A stretch of DNA of 64,000 nt from Actinomycetota bacterium (GCA_018830645.1 JAHJSA010000069.1:55279-119278); one strand, 5' to 3'; positions 26,674 to 36,343 are shown, numbered from the stretch's first letter. Translations and numbers: made by a program. The notes: generated by a model not told the origin, from the letters alone.

Positions 26674-27408
26674 CTAGAGCTGATCGGCGCTGAACGTATC
26701 GCCTTGCGACATATCCCCTGTATCGAGGCCTTTGCGGAACCAGCGGACCCTCTGCTCCGAGGTGCCGTGGGTGAACGAGTCGGGCACCACGCGCCCGGTG
26801 GCTTCCTTCTGAAGCCGGTCGTCGCCGATTACGCTCGCCGCCTGCAGGGCCTCATCGATGTCGCCGGGTTCGAGCACCTGCCAGTTCTCTTGCGCATGAT
26901 AGGCCCACACTCCGGCCAGGAAGTCCGCCTGCAGCTCGAGACGCACCAGATACTGGTTGTACTCGGTCTCGCTCACCTGACTGCGAAGTTCGCTCACCTG
27001 CTCACTGATGCCCAGAAGGTTCTGGACGTGGTGCCCCACCTCATGGGCCACCACGTACGCCTGGGCGAAGTCACCGGGAGCGGCGTGACGTCTGCGCAGC
27101 TCGTCGTAGAGGCGCGGCTCCTGGTACGTGCGCCCCTCTTCCTCGAAGAGCTGCTGCCACACCTCCTCGGTGTCGGCGAGCACCACCCCGATGAAGTCGG
27201 CCAACTCCTGCTCCTCGGCAGTGGGCGCCGCCACTTGCTGCGACGACACCCCTCCCTGGGTGAGCAACTGGGCGGGGTTCCCGCCGAGCAGCAGGAACAA
27301 CACCGCCAAGATGATCGACCCCACGCCGCCACCCAACGCCAGACCGCCCCGCCGCGTGCCGCGGCGATCCTCCACGTTCTGGCTCGTGCGTCTGCCTCTC
27401 CATTTCAT
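26674..27408 (-). CDS. YpfJ-family putative neutral zinc metallopeptidase
   Basis: N-terminal TM segment and AHEVGHHVQN, a HExxH-type zinc site. Start taken at MKWRGRR. Confidence 0.7.
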   Translation of the reverse strand: MKWRGRRTSQNVEDRRGTRRGGLALGGGVGSIILAVLFLLLGGNPAQLLTQGGVSSQQVAAPTAEEQELADFIGVVLADTEEVWQQLFEEEGRTYQEPRLYDELRRRHAAPGDFAQAYVVAHEVGHHVQNLLGISEQVSELRSQVSETEYNQYLVRLELQADFLAGVWAYHAQENWQVLEPGDIDEALQAASVIGDDRLQKEATGRVVPDSFTHGTSEQRVRWFRKGLDTGDMSQGDTFSADQL

Positions 27409-27637
27409 ACATGCCCCGGTCGTGGGAAGGTGCCCGGATACGGCGACTCGACGCACCTGTCGCGTCGGCCGGTCCGAATCCCGATTACCCGCCGTCCGTC
27501 ACTCCAAACACCCGTTGCCCGGGTCGGTGGCCCGCGTGCGACAACGCCCATCACCGGTCGCACTACGAGGCACGGCGCGGGTCGCGCCCCAGCCCCGTAC
27601 GAGGTGCCATCGCGTGTGACACGGTATCATTCACCCC

Positions 27638-28435
27638 ATGTCTCACGTAGAAGACCCGCCCCTGGCCCGGTGGACCGAAGCTGCCCGGAGCAGGCGCTCG
27701 AGAAGAGTGTACCTACCCGGGCGGCCGATCGCGGGAGCCGAAGCAGAGGCGCTCACCCAGTTCTGCGCGACGTACTCACCCTTCCCCGGGGCACGTGCCA
27801 TCGTGCTGGCCGAGGCACCGCCCGAGATCTTCACGGGCTGGCTGCTCGGCGTCTATGGAAAGGTATCCTCACCGTCGGCCCTCGTGTTCGTGGGCGACAG
27901 AAGGCTTCCCGATGCGGCCGCCCGAACAGGCTACACGGCCGAAGGCGCGGCGCTGGAAGCGACGGCCTTGGGATTCTCCACCTGCTGGATCGGAGGAGGT
28001 GTCCGCCGCCGCGAAGTGATGTGGATGCTGGGTCTTGAAGAGCACGAACACGTCTATTCGATCTCGGCCCTTGGATACTCCCACGAAGACAAGACCCTCG
28101 GCGAACGGGCCACGGCGGGCATGGCCCGGGCGGGTAGTCGGCGCTCCCTGGAGGCCATCGCGCCCGGTAGCGAGTTCTGGCCGGAGTGGGTCAAGTCCGG
28201 GCTCGAACTCGTGCGAGTGGCTCCTTCGGCCACGAACCGTCAGCCCTGGCGCTTCGCGCTGGAGGGGAGGTCCGTGCGCCTGTTCTTCGAGGGCCGAGAC
28301 ACCCCGGTGATCTCAAAGCGCCTCGACTGCGGCATCGCCATGCTGCATTTCGAGCTCGGTGCCCGTTCGGCTGGAGTCGAAGGTCGTTGGGAACTCCTCG
28401 AAGGCAACGACGTGGCACGCTGGACATCGACCTAG
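27638..28435 (+). CDS. Nitroreductase-family protein
   Basis: RRSRRVY near the N-terminus and APSATNRQPWRF near the C-terminus resemble the FMN-binding nitroreductase fold. Confidence 0.55.
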   Translation: MSHVEDPPLARWTEAARSRRSRRVYLPGRPIAGAEAEALTQFCATYSPFPGARAIVLAEAPPEIFTGWLLGVYGKVSSPSALVFVGDRRLPDAAARTGYTAEGAALEATALGFSTCWIGGGVRRREVMWMLGLEEHEHVYSISALGYSHEDKTLGERATAGMARAGSRRSLEAIAPGSEFWPEWVKSGLELVRVAPSATNRQPWRFALEGRSVRLFFEGRDTPVISKRLDCGIAMLHFELGARSAGVEGRWELLEGNDVARWTST

Positions 28436-28478
28436 CGCTGCACCGCCAGACGGCCCAGTGCCGCGCCGACCCCGGGGC

Positions 28479-30032
28479 CTAGCGCTGCACCACCCGAAGG
28501 GTCGCGAGTGTCGTGTCGTGCGGTCCGTGCACCGACAGGCCCAGTAGCGCCGCCTCCTTCAGATAGGCCGCCACCTCGGCCGTTATCCGCTCCCCGGGCG
28601 CCAGCACGGGTATGCCGGGTGGATACGGGATAACCATCTCACCGCTCACTTCGCCGACCGCCTCATCGAGGAGCACGGTCCTGGTGGTCGCGAAGAAGGC
28701 GTCGCGGGGACTCATCGCGGGGGTGACGGGGAGAGGCTCGACGAGACCTGTGGGCACGACGAGTCCGAGTGACTCGGCGGGGCCGGCGGGATCGGCGGGT
28801 CCGGGTGGGGCCGGCCGCGCCGCGCGTCCTTCCGCGTTGAGGCGTTCCCCAAGATCCGCGGCGGCGGACTCTGCCACCAGCTGAAGCGCCGCCACAAGCC
28901 GATCGATCGATTCGTCCGAGTCTCCGAAGGTGACGTTCAACACGACGTTGCGCGGGTCGGCCGCCTCCACCGCCACCTTGGATTCTCGCCGCAGACGCAT
29001 CTCCAGCTCGTATCCGGTGAGCCCGAGCGCCGCAGCCGACACCGTGAGCCGTACCGGGTCGAAATCACAGACGCCGGCTGCCGTCTTCGCGGGGGCGCTG
29101 AGCACGGTCATCCCCTCGATCTGGCCGATCTCCGAGCGGGCGCGGGCCGCTAGAGCCAGGGCATCCGACCACAGCCTCTCCCCGTCGGCCACCATCTGCG
29201 CCCGTGCACTGTCGATGGAGGCCAGGATCGGAGCCAGCGGACTCGTGGTCTGGAGCATTCTCACCATGGCACGCAGTCGGTCGGTGTCGACACGCCCCCG
29301 ACACGCCAGCACGATCGAGGCCTGCGACAACCCGCTCAGCAGCTTGTGCACGCTCGTCACGGACGCGTCCGCTCCGGCCGTCATCGCGTCCACGGGGAGC
29401 TTCGAGCAGAACCGAAGGTGCGCTCCCCAGGCTTGGTCTACGATCAGCGGGATCCCGGCGGCGTGCGCATGCTCCGCGAGCGCCTCAACATCCGCACAGA
29501 AACCGTTGTAGCTGGGCGATGTGACGAACACCGCCTTCGCGTCCGGATGAGCGTCAAGAGCCGCCAGCACCCCACGGGTGGGCACGTTGGCCGCGACGCC
29601 CCATCCGAGGTGTACGGTGGGTTCCACATAGACGGGGTGGGCGCCCGAGAAGATCAGCCCGGCGAGCAAGGACTTGTGCGAGTTCCGCGGCACGATGATC
29701 ATGTCCCCCGGCCCGGCGACTGCGAGCACCAATGCCTGCACTCCGCTGGTCGACCCATTGACCAGGAAGTGGGCGATGTCCGCACCCCAAGCCTGGGCCG
29801 CCAGCGTTTCCGCGCGGGCCAGCAGGCCCCTGGATTCCTGCGTGTCCTCGAGACCGTTGGCGATGCCGAAGTCCGCCTCGAGCATGCGCCGACCCACAGC
29901 CTCGACCAGATCCGCGGGAGCACCCGCCCCAAGCTTGTGCCCCGGAGTGTGGAACGCCGCCATCGCGGATGCCCGGTACTCGAGCAGGGCATCCGTCAAT
30001 GGGGTCTCGTCCTGTGCGGTCCGATCGAACAT
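28479..30032 (-). CDS. Orn/Lys/Arg decarboxylase family PLP enzyme (Bacillus SpeA-like arginine decarboxylase)
   Basis: HTPGHKLG N-terminal motif and SVHKLL, the PLP-lysine region. 517 aa. Confidence 0.8.
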   Translation of the reverse strand: MFDRTAQDETPLTDALLEYRASAMAAFHTPGHKLGAGAPADLVEAVGRRMLEADFGIANGLEDTQESRGLLARAETLAAQAWGADIAHFLVNGSTSGVQALVLAVAGPGDMIIVPRNSHKSLLAGLIFSGAHPVYVEPTVHLGWGVAANVPTRGVLAALDAHPDAKAVFVTSPSYNGFCADVEALAEHAHAAGIPLIVDQAWGAHLRFCSKLPVDAMTAGADASVTSVHKLLSGLSQASIVLACRGRVDTDRLRAMVRMLQTTSPLAPILASIDSARAQMVADGERLWSDALALAARARSEIGQIEGMTVLSAPAKTAAGVCDFDPVRLTVSAAALGLTGYELEMRLRRESKVAVEAADPRNVVLNVTFGDSDESIDRLVAALQLVAESAAADLGERLNAEGRAARPAPPGPADPAGPAESLGLVVPTGLVEPLPVTPAMSPRDAFFATTRTVLLDEAVGEVSGEMVIPYPPGIPVLAPGERITAEVAAYLKEAALLGLSVHGPHDTTLATLRVVQR

Positions 30033-30059
30033 CCACCTATTCTGGCAGGTTATTGGGCG

Positions 30060-31370
30060 TCAGCCCAAGCTGGGCCCGCGCTGCAACGCGTAGTTGACGA
30101 AGCGAGAGCCGAGCTGCTCGCTGGCCAACAGGCGGTCGGCGGCGGGCAGGGACGTCAACACGCCCACTACCTGGCCGATGAACCTGTTGCCCCTGCTGGA
30201 GCCTTCGTCCACGATCAGATCGGCGAGCCGCCCCTTCTCGAGGCAGCTCCGCACCACTCGCTCGAGCGTGTTCACCGGGATTTTGGGCTGCTCCGCGCGT
30301 CTGACCATACGCATGGCATCCCGGCGGCACGCTCCCGCGCACACACCGCATCCGATGCACCGCTCCGCATCGACACTCGACACGAGTGCACTCCGCGGGG
30401 ACGCTTCGACGTACTGCGGTCGCATGACGATGGCGCCGATGGGGCAGGCCTTCGCGCAGCGGCCGCAGCCAGAACAGGCTTTGTCATCGGACTCCGCCTG
30501 GAAACCGCTCGGCACGACCGCCGGTAGGTCGTACCGGCGGATCGCCGATAGCTGCGCACAACAACACGCGCAGCAACTGCAGATGTAGGTGGGCCGCTCC
30601 TGCACGTTGTCGGCGATGTGCACAAGCCCAAGTTCCCGAGCCTGCACCAGCAGATCCAAAGCCTCGGTCCGCTCCACAGCACGCCCGAACCCCCGCCTGA
30701 TCACGTAGTCGGCCCCTCCGTTGAGGGTGAGGCAGATATCCGCGGGCCGGTCGCAGGCGTGCCCGAGGTGCTGGGCCTTGTGGCGGCAGTAGCAGATGGA
30801 CACAGCGTGATGGGCGGCGGCGCCCACCACCTCCGAGGCGCGCTCCCAGTCGAGTACCTCGGGCAGGTCGGCGGCAGCCACCCCGCTCTCGTGCACCAGC
30901 GTACGCCCGACCACCGTCCTGCTGCCAAAGACCTCACGGGCGAAGGAGTCGTCGCCGGCGGTGTAGGCGTCGAGCGCGCGGGCCATGCGCTCTTTCGGGA
31001 TAGAGTCCTGGGCACGCATCATGGAGAACTCGAAGAAGCCCACCACCGGCGGCGCCAGCAGGTACGAGGTGTCGCGCCGGCCTCGACCCGGGATGTCCAT
31101 GACGACACCCTTGTCGGCGAGCGCTTCGAGACGGGGTTCGAGTTCGCCCACTGCCATCCCCATGCGGCCCGCAAGAGCCGACGCCGTGATGGGCAGCAGG
31201 GGCATGCGCGACGCCACAGCCGCCTCCTCGGGCGTGAACAGTATCTCGAGGATCTCGCGCCAGCCCGCGCGGGCAGCCTCATCGTCCGGCTCGGGCATGG
31301 CGACAGGACCATGCTGAAGCCTATCGGCGAGCGCGCGGTATTCTTCGTTCAGATGGCCGATGTGCCCCAT
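30060..31370 (-). CDS. Fe-S protein, paralog A: winged-helix-like N-terminal domain + Cys-rich CCG-like segment + two [4Fe-4S] ferredoxin motifs
   Basis: SICYCRHK...GHACD...ICL, CSCCACCCAQ, CSGCGRCAKACP and CIGCGVCAGAC. Clearly paralogous to 33070..34185. Confidence 0.7.
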   Translation of the reverse strand: MGHIGHLNEEYRALADRLQHGPVAMPEPDDEAARAGWREILEILFTPEEAAVASRMPLLPITASALAGRMGMAVGELEPRLEALADKGVVMDIPGRGRRDTSYLLAPPVVGFFEFSMMRAQDSIPKERMARALDAYTAGDDSFAREVFGSRTVVGRTLVHESGVAAADLPEVLDWERASEVVGAAAHHAVSICYCRHKAQHLGHACDRPADICLTLNGGADYVIRRGFGRAVERTEALDLLVQARELGLVHIADNVQERPTYICSCCACCCAQLSAIRRYDLPAVVPSGFQAESDDKACSGCGRCAKACPIGAIVMRPQYVEASPRSALVSSVDAERCIGCGVCAGACRRDAMRMVRRAEQPKIPVNTLERVVRSCLEKGRLADLIVDEGSSRGNRFIGQVVGVLTSLPAADRLLASEQLGSRFVNYALQRGPSLG

Positions 31371-31398
31371 GAACCCCTCCGAACCTGAGTGAGCATGG

Positions 31399-31704
31399 TC
31401 ATCTTGACTGTATCAGAACTGCTCTTGCGCCCCGGTCGCCTCGATGCTTGTTGAGAGCGATGAAGCGGAAGAGCGTATCGCCGCCGTCGCCCAAAGACAC
31501 CCCGAACGCCCCGGCGCCCAACGCTGCCGTCGACAGCAGCAAGAACACCGACACGTAGTGGAACACTGCGTGCATCACCTTGCGGGCGACCTCGTCGAAC
31601 GACGCGGCCAGCATCGGCAACAGATAGAGCTTGCGACCGATCACGAAGTGCCCGACGGTGGTGAACGCCGCCACTGCCGCCGCGACCAACAACAACCAAT
31701 TCAT
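31399..31704 (-). CDS. Small hypothetical membrane protein (2-3 TM)
   Basis: 101-aa hydrophobic ORF lying between qor and Fe-S paralog A on the same strand. Confidence 0.35.
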   Translation of the reverse strand: MNWLLLVAAAVAAFTTVGHFVIGRKLYLLPMLAASFDEVARKVMHAVFHYVSVFLLLSTAALGAGAFGVSLGDGGDTLFRFIALNKHRGDRGARAVLIQSR

Positions 31705-31887
31705 CTTGTTCCCCCTGAGACATGGATTCGCCCACTACGCCCGCAGTCGACCGACCGGGGGAAGATGCTCCTGGATCCACCCAGCCGACGAAAGCCGCAG
31801 AGGTACCAGTGGAGCGCCCTTCTCGGACGGAAACGCGTCGCCAGACCAGGCAGGCCGGGGAAGCCCGGTCCGCGTGCGCCGAACCCA

Positions 31888-32862
31888 CTACTCCCGAGTG
31901 TCGAGCACCAGCTTGCCTATGGTCTTCCGGCCTTCGAGGGCACGGTGCGCTTCCGCGGCCTCGGCCAACGGGAACACGCCACCCACGCGAACCGAGAGTC
32001 CGCCCTCCGCCGCCCACGTCAGGATGCTGCCCGCACGCTCCAACAGGTCTTCCCGCGAGACGACGTGATGAAAGAGCGTGGGGCGTTGGAGGAAGAGCGA
32101 TCCTTTGGCGCTGAGGAGCTGGGGATCGAACGGAGCGACCGGACCGCTCGACTGGCCGAAGACGATCATGGAACCCCGCAGCGCGAGGCAGTCGAGTCCC
32201 TTCTCGAACGTGTCCCGCCCGACCCCGTCGTACACCACCTGGACCCCGGCGCCGGCGGTGAGGCGATGGATCTCACCTACGAAGTCCTGCTCGGTGTAGA
32301 TGATCACCTCGTCGGCGCCGGCCTGGCGCGCGACCTGTGCCTTCTCCTCGGTGGAGACGGTGCCCACGACCCGGGCACCGGCATGACGCGCCATCTGGCA
32401 CAAGAGGAGGCCGACGCCCCCGGCGGCGGCGTGCACCAGGCAGGTGTCACCGGGCTTGAGCGGGTACGAGGAGTGGGTGAGGTAGTGGGCGGTCATGCCC
32501 TGCAACATGGCTGCGGCGGCGGTGACCAGGTCCAGTCCTTCCGGAACCGGCACCAGACGATCTGCCGGGGCGAACACATGCGTGGCATACGACCCCGGCA
32601 GCCCGGACCAGGCCACCCGGTCCCCCACCCCTACGAGGTCCACCCCCGGGCCGACGGCCTCGACCACCCCGGCACCCTCAAGACCCAATGACACCGGCAA
32701 GGCGGCGGGATACCGGCCCGTGCGGTGATACACGTCGATGAAGTTGACCCCGGCCGCTTCCACCCGCACCAATGCTTCGCCCTGCAAGGGTTCACGGCTG
32801 GGTAGTTCTTCAAGCCGCATCACCTCTGCACCACCGTGTTCCGCGGCTCGGACCGCCCTCAT
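31888..32862 (-). CDS. qor: NADPH:quinone oxidoreductase (zinc-type ADH superfamily, Qor/zeta-crystallin-like)
   Basis: AGVNFIDV and GAAGGVGLLLCQMA motifs. 324 aa. Confidence 0.8.
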   Translation of the reverse strand: MRAVRAAEHGGAEVMRLEELPSREPLQGEALVRVEAAGVNFIDVYHRTGRYPAALPVSLGLEGAGVVEAVGPGVDLVGVGDRVAWSGLPGSYATHVFAPADRLVPVPEGLDLVTAAAAMLQGMTAHYLTHSSYPLKPGDTCLVHAAAGGVGLLLCQMARHAGARVVGTVSTEEKAQVARQAGADEVIIYTEQDFVGEIHRLTAGAGVQVVYDGVGRDTFEKGLDCLALRGSMIVFGQSSGPVAPFDPQLLSAKGSLFLQRPTLFHHVVSREDLLERAGSILTWAAEGGLSVRVGGVFPLAEAAEAHRALEGRKTIGKLVLDTRE

Positions 32863-33069
32863 GCCGACACCTCCGTCATCCCGCCGCGTGCCGCGGCTCG
32901 CTTCCGCACGACCGCCCGCACCTTCCGGCGAGCCGTACGACCCCGGCTACCATCGTATCGGGCCGGGCACGAGCGCGCGACCCCGCTGAGCCGCGCATGT
33001 CGCCCACCGAACACCACTTCGGTATGATGGGATGCGTCGATTGAACCCGCGCAGCTTGGAGGCGAACAC

Positions 33070-34185
33070 GTGGAGGACTCGACGATTCACACGACTCACG
33101 AGCGCCTGGCAAAGCACCTCGCCGCCCTGGGCATGGGCCTCCCGGCAACGGCGGACCTCGTGGAAATCCTCCAACGTCTGCTGACCCAGGACGAAGCTGA
33201 GCTCCTGCTGGCCTTGCCCACCAACATCGCGCCCCTTCAGGTGGCTACCGTGGAGCAGATCGCGGCGGCGGCGGGAGTCGACCAGCCTGACGAGATCGAG
33301 GTGGCTCTCGATCGCCTCCTCGCTCGCGGCCTCCTGTATTCTGGCCGCACACTGTCGGGCGAGCGCGGGTACGCCCTGCTGCAGGCGGGCTTCGGGTTCC
33401 CTCAGACGTTCTTCTGGGCGGGCGAGGAATCCGACGAGGCACGCGAGATGGCCGCGATGGTGTCGAAATACGCCAACCGACACGTCCTGCGCGAGATGTA
33501 CGCGGCGACACCCACGAAGGCCTACCGCTACGTGCCGCTCGACCTGTCTCTCACAGCCGACCAGCAGGCGGTGTATCCGCAACATGCGATGGACGGAGTG
33601 CTCGACAGGGCTCGCACCTTCGCCGTGGCGCACTGCCCTTGCCGAGTGGCCGTCGGCCTTCGGGGCCACGCGTGCGAGCATCCGCTCGAAGTGTGCCTCA
33701 AGTTCGACGAGTTGGCCGACTACGTAGTGGAGCGCGGTCTCGCCCGCAGCATCACCCGCGAAGAAGCTCGCGGGATCGTGCGCGCGTCGGCGGAAGCCGG
33801 ACTCGTGCACTTCGTGGACAACGCTCTCGGCGACGTCAAGCACAACTGCAACTGCTGCGGCGACGCGTGCTGGAACGTGGGTACGATACGCCGCCGGAAG
33901 ATCCCGCGCGACTCGCTGATGGCAACCTACTTCCTGCGCACGACGACCCGGGAGACGTGCAGCTCCTGTGGCATGTGCGCCGAGGTGTGCCCGGTCCACG
34001 CCGTCGACGTGGAGTCGGGAGAACCGGACGTCGATCTCGATTGGTGCATAGGCTGTGGTGTCTGCGTCACCCGGTGCGCGGACGGGGCGGCCGGTCTCGC
34101 CCTTCGCACCGACCTCGCCCACGAGCCGCCCCCCGATTTCGCCGCGCTCCATCGCACGATCCTCGGCGAGAAGAGCGAGGCATAG
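33070..34185 (+). CDS. Fe-S protein, paralog B (same architecture as 30060..31370)
   Basis: HCPCRVAVGLRGHACEHPLEVCL, CNCCGDACW (CCG-like), CSSCGMCAEVCP and CIGCGVCVTRC. Confidence 0.7.
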   Translation: MEDSTIHTTHERLAKHLAALGMGLPATADLVEILQRLLTQDEAELLLALPTNIAPLQVATVEQIAAAAGVDQPDEIEVALDRLLARGLLYSGRTLSGERGYALLQAGFGFPQTFFWAGEESDEAREMAAMVSKYANRHVLREMYAATPTKAYRYVPLDLSLTADQQAVYPQHAMDGVLDRARTFAVAHCPCRVAVGLRGHACEHPLEVCLKFDELADYVVERGLARSITREEARGIVRASAEAGLVHFVDNALGDVKHNCNCCGDACWNVGTIRRRKIPRDSLMATYFLRTTTRETCSSCGMCAEVCPVHAVDVESGEPDVDLDWCIGCGVCVTRCADGAAGLALRTDLAHEPPPDFAALHRTILGEKSEA

Positions 34186-34366
34186 CGAGAGCGACGGCGA
34201 GGACGACCGCGGGGGCGCGCGAGGGGCGCGAGGCGCTGCGCTTGAACGCCCCAGCGCCGCCTGACCAGTTTGTCGCACCCGCCACCTGGGCATACAGACG
34301 TGGCCGCGAAGCGTCCGCTCGCGGCCACAGACAACGTGACAGAGGGACACCCGGAGGTGCCGGAAG

Positions 34367-34606
34367 ATGGAAGAACTCGTGAAGCTCGTGACGGAGAAGA
34401 CATGGATCTCGGACGACATGGCCCGCAAAGCCGTCCAAGTGGTACTCGGCTTCCTGAAGGACAAGTTGCCGGCCCCCATAGCCGGCCAGATCGACGGCCA
34501 GATCGACGGCCTGATCAGCGGCGGAGCAGGCGGAGCAGGCGGAGCAGCCGGAGGCGCGATGGACAGCGTGACCAAGGGGCTCGGCGGCCTACTGGGCAAG
34601 GACTGA
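34367..34606 (+). CDS. Small conserved hypothetical protein with a Gly-rich C-terminus
   Basis: 79 aa. N-terminus MEELVKLVTEKTWISDDMARKAVQVVLGFLKDKLP looks like a conserved small-protein family. Preceded by GGAGG. Confidence 0.45.
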   Translation: MEELVKLVTEKTWISDDMARKAVQVVLGFLKDKLPAPIAGQIDGQIDGLISGGAGGAGGAAGGAMDSVTKGLGGLLGKD

Positions 34607-34625
34607 GACCACTCCTCGCGACAAC

Positions 34626-34859
34626 ATGCCGACGCCCTGGGGCGATCCGCCCAGACTCGAAGAACTCGAAACTCGGCTGGACGAGGTGGAGCGCGGCCTG
34701 CCGGGGATCCTCGCCCTATCGGACAAGGCGGGCCTCTACCTGCGTAGGGAGCTCGATTCTCTCCGAGCTGAGTCACGATTGCAGGTGGAACGCTGGACAC
34801 GAGTCACGGAGAGAGCCGACGCCCTGATCGCGGCGCTCGACGACCCGCCACCGAGTTGA
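34626..34859 (+). CDS. Hypothetical small coiled-coil protein
   Basis: ORF only. 77 aa. Confidence 0.2.
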   Translation: MPTPWGDPPRLEELETRLDEVERGLPGILALSDKAGLYLRRELDSLRAESRLQVERWTRVTERADALIAALDDPPPS

Positions 34860-35092
34860 CACCTCCCATGGGCGGGCAGGCCAGGTTTGGGCGCCCGGCC
34901 GTGTGCAGGTTCAGTGCGGGTTCACACCCGACGCGATTCGTCGGTGTGCGCACATACACTTGCCACGTTTCAGAGATTTCGGTAGCTTCGCGGAAGGATC
35001 CGCACAGGTTCACCGAAGGATCCATGTAGCTTCACCGAAGCCTCCGTCCGCGCGGTGCCTTCGGAGCCACGATCACAAACCCCAGGAGCGGA

Positions 35093-36343
35093 GTGACAAG
35101 AATGGACCTGAGCGACCTGCGTGTGAACGGCGAGCGGCTTCGGGCGAGCCTCGAAGAGATGGCCAAGATCGGGGCGACACCGGGTGGAGGCGTGCAGCGC
35201 CTCACCCTCTCCGACGAGGACAAACGCGCCCGAGACCTCTTCGTCGGCCGGCTCGAAGAGATCGACCTCGAGGTCACGGTGGACGAGATGGGCAACATCT
35301 TCGGCCGCCGCCCCGGCAAGAACGACGAACTGCCGCCGGTCTTCAGCGGGTCGCACATCGACTCCCAGCCGAAGGGTGGCCGTTTCGACGGCATCCTGGG
35401 CGTGATGGGCGCCCTCGAAGTGATGCGCACGCTGCACGAGAACAACGTGCAGACCGAGCGACCCGTGCTCATCGTCGATTGGACCAACGAAGAGGGCTCC
35501 CGCTTTGCGCCCGCCATGGTGGCTTCGGGCGTATGGGCCGGCAAGCTCGATCGTGACTGGGCATATTCGCGCACCGACCGTGATGGCAAGGTCTTCGGCG
35601 AGGAACTCGAGCGCATCGGCTACAAAGGCTCAGCACCGGCAAAGGCCTGGCCGTTCCATGCCTACTACGAGCTGCACATCGAACAGGGCCCGGTCTTGGA
35701 GTCGATCGGGAAGACCATCGGTATCCCCAAGGGCATCCTCTGCCTGCACTGGTACGACGTGTACATCGAGGGCAAGGCCAACCAGGTGGGCCCCACGCCG
35801 ATGGAGGGCCGGAACGACGCGCTCTGCGCCGCCGCCGAGATGATCCTTGCGGTGCAATCGGTGCCGGCCCGCATGGGCGGCAACATGGTCGCCACGGTGG
35901 GTGAGATCCAGAACTATCCGAACTCGCGGAACATCATCCCCGACGGCGTTCACTTCACGGTGGACATCCGGTCCTGGGACGACCACCTGGCTATCAACGC
36001 GTGGGAGCAGCTCAAGATCGACTTCCAGGCTGCCGCCGGCAAGAACGGTTGCCCGATCCGCTTCGAAGAGACTTGGCGCGTGGAGCACACCCCCTTCGCC
36101 GAGAAGCTGGTGGGGCTCCTGGCGCAGAAGGCCGAAGCCCTCGGCTACTCCTCCCACCACATGGTCAGCGGCGCCGGCCACGACGCGAGCTACATGAACA
36201 TGCTGGGCGACGCGGCTATGATCTTCATCCCCAGCATCGGAGGACGGAGCCACGTCGAGGTGGAGAACAGCACGTGGGAAGACTGTGAATCGGGAGCCAA
36301 CGTGCTTCTGCACTGCATGATCGAGTCGGCGAACGAGGTGTAG
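35093..36343 (+). CDS. M20-family Zn-dependent amidohydrolase (allantoate amidohydrolase / N-carbamoyl-amino-acid hydrolase type)
   Basis: GSHIDSQPKGG and other M20 metal-ligand motifs. 416 aa. Confidence 0.8.
   Translation: MTRMDLSDLRVNGERLRASLEEMAKIGATPGGGVQRLTLSDEDKRARDLFVGRLEEIDLEVTVDEMGNIFGRRPGKNDELPPVFSGSHIDSQPKGGRFDGILGVMGALEVMRTLHENNVQTERPVLIVDWTNEEGSRFAPAMVASGVWAGKLDRDWAYSRTDRDGKVFGEELERIGYKGSAPAKAWPFHAYYELHIEQGPVLESIGKTIGIPKGILCLHWYDVYIEGKANQVGPTPMEGRNDALCAAAEMILAVQSVPARMGGNMVATVGEIQNYPNSRNIIPDGVHFTVDIRSWDDHLAINAWEQLKIDFQAAAGKNGCPIRFEETWRVEHTPFAEKLVGLLAQKAEALGYSSHHMVSGAGHDASYMNMLGDAAMIFIPSIGGRSHVEVENSTWEDCESGANVLLHCMIESANEV

Follow-up and report, generated by a model that had tools for sequence, protein, structure and literature searches.

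Two ancient subtypes of a widespread 4Fe-4S protein family with a cysteine-rich central domain of no described relatives

The 64,000-nucleotide stretch of Actinomycetota bacterium DNA analyzed here as a whole (GCA_018830645.1, JAHJSA010000069.1:55279-119278), called the window, carries two related genes, paralogs A and B, on either side of a gene for a Qor-like oxidoreductase. What do their cysteine-rich products do, and do they do it together with their neighbors? A reading made from the DNA alone (the sequence-only reading) had proposed a duplicated redox module partnered with Qor and a small membrane protein, with a heterodisulfide-reductase-like cysteine cluster and possibly a DNA-binding regulatory role. 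The family to which A and B belong is annotated only as "4Fe-4S binding protein", as just the last 60 residues are recognized; it has members in over 500 species representatives for each subtype and amounts to about 2,400 clusters at 50% identity. The region of it that is conserved best is a domain rich in cysteine, for which there is neither a Pfam or NCBIfam model nor a solved or detectably similar structure. The explanation favored here, held with a confidence evenly poised between acceptance and doubt, is that A and B are soluble, stand-alone, multi-cluster Fe-S redox proteins, enzymatic rather than regulatory in role.

One family in two orthologous groups

Paralogs A and B are collinear, sharing 28% identity over about 350 residues (BLASTP E = 2e-33), and the common cysteine motifs noticed in the sequence-only reading are borne out by 16 cysteines invariant in both groups, eight in the central domain and eight in two CxxCxxCxxxC motifs. 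This holds in alignments of B-type proteins (A1), A-type proteins (A2), and the central domain (A3, 21 sequences). Paralog A is identical to MBU2602888.1 and paralog B to P0001, with P0393 (MBU2602891.1) in the same 90%-identity cluster as B; like MBU2602888.1 and MBU2602891.1, the relatives all bear generic database names such as "4Fe-4S binding protein".

Each type has a large set of homologs of its own. Those of B number more than 1,300; the best 120, most of them about 366 aa long, match at 54-70% identity along almost the whole length and have their sources in Thermoleophilia, Chloroflexota, Dehalococcoidia, Deltaproteobacteria, Peptococcaceae, and Desulfomonilaceae. Those of A number more than 1,700, the best 120 being full-length proteins of about 436 aa with 56-70% identity from Polyangiaceae, Acidobacteria, Planctomycetes, Krumholzibacteriia, and others. 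Full-length identity of 54-70% per type is found in Chloroflexota, Deltaproteobacteria, Firmicutes, Acidobacteriota, Planctomycetota, and Actinomycetota. Because A and B have 28% identity with each other and 55-70% with orthologs in other phyla, their sequences point to two anciently diverged, widespread orthologous groups, not to a local duplication; of the duplicated, uncharacterized module proposed earlier, the paralogy and the uncharacterized family stand, while the local duplication does not.

Pattern scans covered species-representative genomes as well as metagenomes, and more than 500 relatives were confirmed among the matches listed for each, with Anaeromyxobacter oryzae, Anaerospora hongkongensis, and Desulforamulus aeronauticus as cultured carriers among the matches. 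The A3 profile of the central domain found 2,383 clusters at 50% identity, 1,385 of them at E <= 1e-10, and in the best 150 of these clusters the domain lies mostly near residues 155-290 of proteins of 350-440 aa that are laid out as A and B are. Among unusual architectures in these best 150 representatives, the sole informative fusion was an N-terminal SRPBCC/Polyketide_cyc2 domain in P0317 (509 aa). The central domain and the linker before it are the most conserved regions, with a mean pairwise identity of 65-72% as against 51-59% in the N-terminal winged helix-turn-helix (wHTH). A full-length identity of 54-70% across phyla is commoner in enzymes than in transcription factors.

The central Cys8 domain and the ferredoxin module

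The central domain, here called Cys8, follows the shared pattern CxCR-x9/10-C-x6-C ... DN ... CxCC-x3-C. In A-type proteins, the cysteines run C193-x-C195-R-H ... C206 ... C213, then C264-x-CC-x-CCC, and in B-type proteins C189-x-C191-R ... C202 ... C209, then C260-x-C262-C263-x3-C267. The invariant residues other than cysteine are R196, D254, and N255 in A and R192, D250, and N251 in B; besides this CxCR arginine and D-N pair, a few further residues are invariant across both types. The A-type proteins end in a helical extension with a mean net charge of +5.2 that is absent from B. The AlphaFold2 (AF2) model of B (predicted local distance difference test, pLDDT, 75; predicted template modeling score, pTM, 0.68) consists of helices with a winged helix, a conserved linker, an alpha/beta central domain, and a ferredoxin domain, and places the central cysteines at strand ends and helix starts.

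Searches for a relative of the Cys8 domain gave nothing of use. The A3 profile found noise only among PDB sequences at E <= 10, and the 21 central-domain sequences matched no relevant Pfam family at E <= 10, the CCG and ferredoxin-thioredoxin reductase (FTR) families included. The likeness to heterodisulfide-reductase CCG domains suggested in the sequence-only reading is not supported: neither A nor B matched PF02754 at E <= 0.1, the central domain of the models does not appear to adopt an HdrB-like fold, and the CCG domain of the HdrB/GlpC type is rejected by spacing as well, with CxC-x10-C-x6-C-x50-CxCC-x3-C observed against CX31-39CCX35-36CXXC. The likeness to CCG domains (PF02754; HdrB, GlpC, LutA, and SdhE, with a non-cubane [4Fe-4S] cluster) is a general one, namely, a cysteine-rich domain that has adjacent cysteines, comes after or along with ferredoxin-type clusters, and might plausibly hold a cluster of unusual type.

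The catalytic subunit of FTR (PF02943) was likewise rejected by motif (CPC-x16-CPC-x8-CHC), profile, and fold. In this subunit, with its CPC ... CPC ... CHC motif, a [4Fe-4S] cluster is combined with an active-site disulfide. The B-type H-C-P-C-R, the further cysteines, and a C-L-K-F stretch loosely resemble the CPCR and CHCMLF of FTR, and by this analogy a ferredoxin-dependent cluster/disulfide chemistry is conceivable. As far as was observed, the central domain resembles no known family or fold, the part on fold being provisional. The ferredoxin and winged-helix parts are ordinary, and the dominant, best-conserved part of these proteins is a domain without a described family or fold.

The C-terminal 2x[4Fe-4S] ferredoxin domain is the one part that Pfam and NCBIfam recognize in A and B. 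Its two CxxCxxCxxxC(P) motifs, seen already in the sequence-only reading, are of the bacterial type with scores above the gathering threshold: A scores 45.5 bits with Fer4 (cutoff 21.1, E = 5e-12) and 37.7 bits with Fer4_7 (cutoff 27, E = 3e-9), and B scores 28.7 bits with Fer4 (cutoff 21.1) and 29.6 bits with Fer4_9 (cutoff 27). A fold search on the AF2 models predicts the ferredoxin (beta-alpha-beta)2 fold, and the PDB sequence matches of A are confined to the ferredoxin modules of FwdF, MvhB, and HdrA. Known modules of this kind are the delta subunit of PFOR/OOR, the FwdF/MvhB polyferredoxins, and the inserted ferredoxin domains of HdrA. In contrast to these oxidoreductases, the module makes up only about 15% of A and B, the approximately 290 preceding residues (winged helix, linker, and Cys8) have no counterpart in them, and the genes of A and B are solitary, whereas the PFOR/OOR, FwdF/MvhB, and HdrA modules are encoded in oxidoreductase operons.

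On the favored explanation, electrons would pass into or out of the protein by the two ferredoxin-type clusters, with a relay to the Cys8 domain, which would hold one or two more clusters, or else a cluster together with redox-active cysteines, and whose conserved polar site would be the place where a substrate or partner is reduced or oxidized. We infer the number and type of clusters (up to four), the direction of electron flow, and the enzymatic role. Because the linkers, the basic patch after CxCC, and the C-terminal tails differ, the A-type and B-type proteins probably act on different substrates or partners. A further step, tentative and with the balance leaning against it, is that Cys8 is an undescribed Fe-S fold with an unusual site, the catalytic center of a new and widespread group of stand-alone ferredoxin-dependent reductases in at least two ancient subtypes. 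The site might then be occupied by two closely coupled cubanes, by a cluster of the non-cubane kind, or by a cluster next to a pair of redox-active cysteines, and its carriers might number thousands of lineages among anaerobic as well as aerobic bacteria. If the favored explanation is right, defining the cofactor and reaction of Cys8 would enlarge the Fe-S repertoire by a new cluster-binding domain, and thousands of genes from Chloroflexota, Myxococcota, Acidobacteriota, Actinomycetota, Firmicutes, and further phyla would gain a function.

Winged helix, gene context, and competing explanations

The N-terminal wHTH suggested by the sequence-only reading is supported by the fold predicted from the models, and the DNA-binding regulator built upon it is not, the domain being acidic and A and B giving no HTH family match at E <= 0.1 in Pfam or NCBIfam. 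When the N-terminal regions of 32 family members were scanned with Pfam and weak matches were counted, they fell on TrmB (12), Rrf2, NirDL-like HTH, and RPA_C (eight each), Rio2_N and DprA_WH (six each), the O-methyltransferase dimerization domain (three), and FeoC (two); RPA_C, Rio2_N, and the O-methyltransferase dimerization domain are non-DNA-binding winged helices. The top PDB sequence match of the N-terminal profile is the NirDL HTH (4ch7_A, E = 2.4e-5). The mean net charge of the wHTH is -7.5 in the B-type (range -13 to -3) and -3.3 in the A-type, and that of helix H3 in the recognition position is -1.3 and -0.8, respectively, with a surface mostly of E/D or variable residues. The conserved positions of the wHTH are core hydrophobics and glycines, and a conserved basic or polar, DNA-contacting recognition helix and wing was not found there. 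Judged from its sequence, the acidic wHTH argues against classical DNA binding, though it is not proof.

A precedent for a winged helix outside regulators is the NirDL/AhbAB siroheme decarboxylase, which has an Lrp/AsnC-type HTH inside an enzyme; only this HTH of approximately 55 residues aligns with A and B, and NirDL lacks Fe-S clusters and differs in its C-terminal domain. In the Rrf2 regulators (IscR, NsrR, and RsrR) and the MarR/ArsR/TrmB type, a single cluster with three to four ligands sits beside a wHTH with basic DNA-contacting helices, whereas A and B have a wHTH that is acidic, carry 16 cysteines in two additional domains, and are far better conserved across phyla. In the favored explanation, the acidic winged helix would most likely be structural or a docking site for a partner rather than DNA-binding.

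The gene context was examined in 96 first-batch (mostly A-type) and 83 B-type loci by tblastn of the window's neighbors and by open reading frame (ORF) clustering. Only the Thermoleophilia loci L014, L015, and L017 have a close Qor homolog (69-71% identity) within 8 kb; the other matches are weaker medium-chain dehydrogenase/reductase (MDR) proteins (44% in L043, 33% in L037, weak in L020 and L155). A and B occur together only in L015, and the decarboxylase and the small ORF of the window never adjoin A elsewhere. De novo clustering of neighbors gave no family in more than seven of approximately 87 A-type or more than nine of 83 B-type loci, the larger clusters reflecting synteny within single clades, and 33 candidate partners on the same strand proved heterogeneous when their Pfam domains were tallied, with nothing recurrent. 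The string of qor, small ORF, and A with a divergent B is a Thermoleophilia-specific neighborhood and not a conserved module.

Among these relatives, B is divergent from qor in L015, followed by adenosine deaminase, SRPBCC, and A; L014 has qor, NmrA, SRPBCC, and A, with a flavodoxin gene in the slot of B; and L017 has qor, SRPBCC, and A, with a nitroreductase further on. A separate SRPBCC gene lies directly upstream of the A-type gene at L014:5600-6112, L015:4208-4768, and L017:2745-3311, and no SRPBCC remnant was found between qor and A in the window. Together with the fusion in P0317, this adjacency is a possible Rosetta-stone link to a hydrophobic-ligand-binding protein. In L014, the flavodoxin (L014:1519-1962) stands between the small ORF by the M20 peptidase gene and qor, where the window has B and the 79-aa ORF (33070..34606), the M20 peptidases of both loci being 90% identical and qor 68-70%; the positional replacement of B by a low-potential electron carrier is a single case and hints weakly at a part for B in electron transfer.

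In Krumholzibacteriia (L009/L010:3488-5904), an A-type gene is immediately preceded, on its own strand, by two HGD-D genes. HGD-D proteins are of the 2-hydroxyacyl-CoA dehydratase/benzoyl-CoA reductase type. No BcrAD/HgdC-type activator was visible within 6 kb of these genes, and in this single case the A-type protein could be their electron donor. The SRPBCC, HGD-D, and flavodoxin links are weak hints that proteins of the A/B family act as redox partners.

Three other explanations have to be weighed against an enzymatic role. A and B might be Fe-S transcription factors that sense redox state, O2, or NO, with four clusters controlling DNA binding by the wHTH and B regulating the divergent qor. 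This is unlikely, as the N-terminal domain is strongly acidic with E/D or variable residues in the recognition helix, a cross-phylum identity of 55-70% with its peak in Cys8 and the linker would be unusual, and qor stands beside the gene in one lineage only. No known Fe-S sensor (FNR, IscR, NsrR, SoxR, or Wbl) uses as many as 16 cysteines or four clusters. Nor is any palindrome common to the two qor/B intergenic regions compared (window and L015), the imperfect GC-rich one in the window being found there only, although a comparison of two sequences counts for little. The proteins might instead be polyferredoxin-like carriers or adaptors, general low-potential electron hubs rather than enzymes, whose wHTH docks varying partner enzymes; up to four clusters in a row with the ferredoxin domain at one end, the heterogeneous neighbors, the flavodoxin in L014, the A-type gene after two activator-less HGD-D genes, and the SRPBCC fusion would all suit such a role. 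It is doubtful nevertheless, since an identity of 65-72% in a non-ferredoxin domain and a 65-residue linker across phyla is rare for simple carriers, the invariant polar residues (CxCR arginine, D-N pair, and R226) suggest a specific site, and flavodoxin and HGD-D each rest on one case.

The partnership envisaged by the sequence-only reading, a quinone-linked or thiol/disulfide-linked reductase module that would unite A and B with Qor and the small membrane protein and would contain a non-cubane cluster of the CCG type, has become very improbable. The gene order does recur in the Thermoleophilia relatives, the neighborhood is rich in redox genes (nitroreductase and Qor, with flavodoxin and NmrA in relatives), and the CPC and CxCC motifs are loosely like those of FTR and Hdr chemistry, but the comparative data largely refute the module: the co-occurrence of a close qor is limited to three Thermoleophilia loci, and the window's copy of the small membrane protein is truncated, with homologs that occur in contexts without the Fe-S family. 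On present evidence, the genes should not be annotated as Hdr/CCG-like, as Qor partners, or as transcription factors.

Several observations also weigh against the enzymatic explanation favored here. The approximately 170 loci outside the Thermoleophilia relatives show no conserved neighbor and no operon partner that would indicate a substrate, and no recurrent fusion indicating one was found. Full-text literature searches returned nothing on a wHTH/Cys8/2x[4Fe-4S] architecture. A solitary gene with a winged helix also fits a transcription factor; the best orthologs match TrmB at E = 1.7e-4 and Rrf2 at E = 2e-4, both weak, and P0254 reaches 25.7 bits with TrmB against a cutoff of 25.6 bits, the sole ortholog at threshold. 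The CxCC loop has a pLDDT of 50-65 in models without cofactors, because of which both the cluster stoichiometry and the absence of a known fold are provisional.

Features of the locus and minor observations

The coordinates are collected in Table 1. The ORF list agrees with the minus-strand string of qor, small ORF, and A described earlier, with 27 nt from the end of A to the start of the decarboxylase gene, as it does with the divergence of B from qor across about 200 bp. The Qor neighbor has clear Pfam MDR domains and scores 288 bits against NF008024 (NADPH:quinone reductase), under the cutoff of 348 bits; it is best called a Qor-like MDR. A TM1586-type nitroreductase is encoded near A and B in the window (Pfam/NCBIfam).

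Table 1. Features of the locus and domains of the two proteins (window coordinates)
Feature	Position	Strand	Length	Remarks
Orn/Lys/Arg decarboxylase	28479..30032	minus	517 aa	Pfam/NCBIfam
Paralog A	30060..31370	minus	436 aa	ORF list
A residues 358-436, basic C-terminal extension	30063..30299	minus		conserved in A2, A-type only
A residues 293-357, 2x[4Fe-4S] ferredoxin domain	30300..30494	minus		C299/302/305/309, C338/341/344/348
A residues 176-292, central Cys8 domain	30495..30845	minus		invariant columns in A2, A3
A residues 1-108, N-terminal helical and winged-helix domain	31047..31370	minus		collinear with B N-terminus
Hydrophobic small ORF	31399..31704	minus	101 aa	between qor and A
Qor-like MDR	31888..32862	minus	324 aa	Pfam ADH_N and ADH_zinc_N
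qor/B divergent intergenic region	32863..33069		207 bp
Paralog B	33070..34185	plus	371 aa	ORF list
B residues 1-105, N-terminal helices and winged helix	33070..33384	plus		H61-68, H73-85, hairpin 89-103
B residues 171-290, central Cys8 domain	33580..33939	plus		C189, C191, C202, C209, C260, C262, C263, C267
B residues 291-345, 2x[4Fe-4S] ferredoxin domain	33940..34104	plus		C297/300/303/307, C326/329/332/336
Gly/Ala-rich ORF	34367..34606	plus	79 aa	repeat GQIDGQIDGLISGGAGGAGGAAGG
77-aa ORF	34626..34859		77 aa	next ORF after the Gly/Ala-rich ORF

The small ORF between qor and A has homologs of approximately 126 aa that are hypothetical membrane proteins, with distant Shewanella members named DUF423. 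Its alignment with them diverges after residue 85 (FIALN), the last approximately 40 residues with two predicted transmembrane (TM) helices are missing, and it has two hydrophobic segments, that is, two of about four TM helices. Up to the start of A, which follows 28 nt downstream, the other frames show no remnant of the missing TM part, and the contexts of the approximately 126-aa homologs contained no gene of the A/B Fe-S family. By comparison of the sequences, the ORF is a truncated copy of this family.

The window from 26674 to 36343 and the loci L014, L015, and L017 form a syntenic, redox-rich block (TM1586-type nitroreductase, A, Qor-like MDR, B or flavodoxin, and NmrA in the relatives) in which the intervening genes vary; the Orn/Lys/Arg decarboxylase downstream of A is seen in this window only. 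A PF04199 cyclase gene adjoins the B-type gene in three loci, too narrow a set to interpret. The gene for a beta-CASP/RMMBL RNase of the metallo-beta-lactamase fold adjoins it in nine metagenome loci (L117, L118, L148, L164, L165, L168, L170, L171, and L175), which also share SDR, UbiA, and peptidase MA; this adjacency is probably synteny of one clade and likewise too narrow to interpret. In L001 (Peptococcaceae), an RNase J gene (L001:4068-5732) lies 2.3 kb upstream of the B-type gene, and the 1.1-kb "intergenic" region upstream of the latter contains an uncalled PrkA AAA-domain fragment (L001:7095-7916, E = 6e-82), probably a pseudogene.

A riboswitch or leader RNA was considered, as some homologs have long upstream regions, and was rejected, since an Rfam scan at the gathering threshold of the window, L001, and L002 gave only tRNA. 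A sigma-70 promoter scan of the qor/B intergenic region gave no match, which is uninformative in an actinobacterium of 67% GC. PMC10434189, a candidate paper for the architecture, proved unrelated. The 79-aa Gly/Ala-rich ORF downstream of B has no Pfam or NCBIfam match and no homolog in the 96 first-batch or 83 B-type loci. The 77-aa ORF that follows shares 40% identity with a 78-aa ORF beside the M20 peptidase gene of L014.

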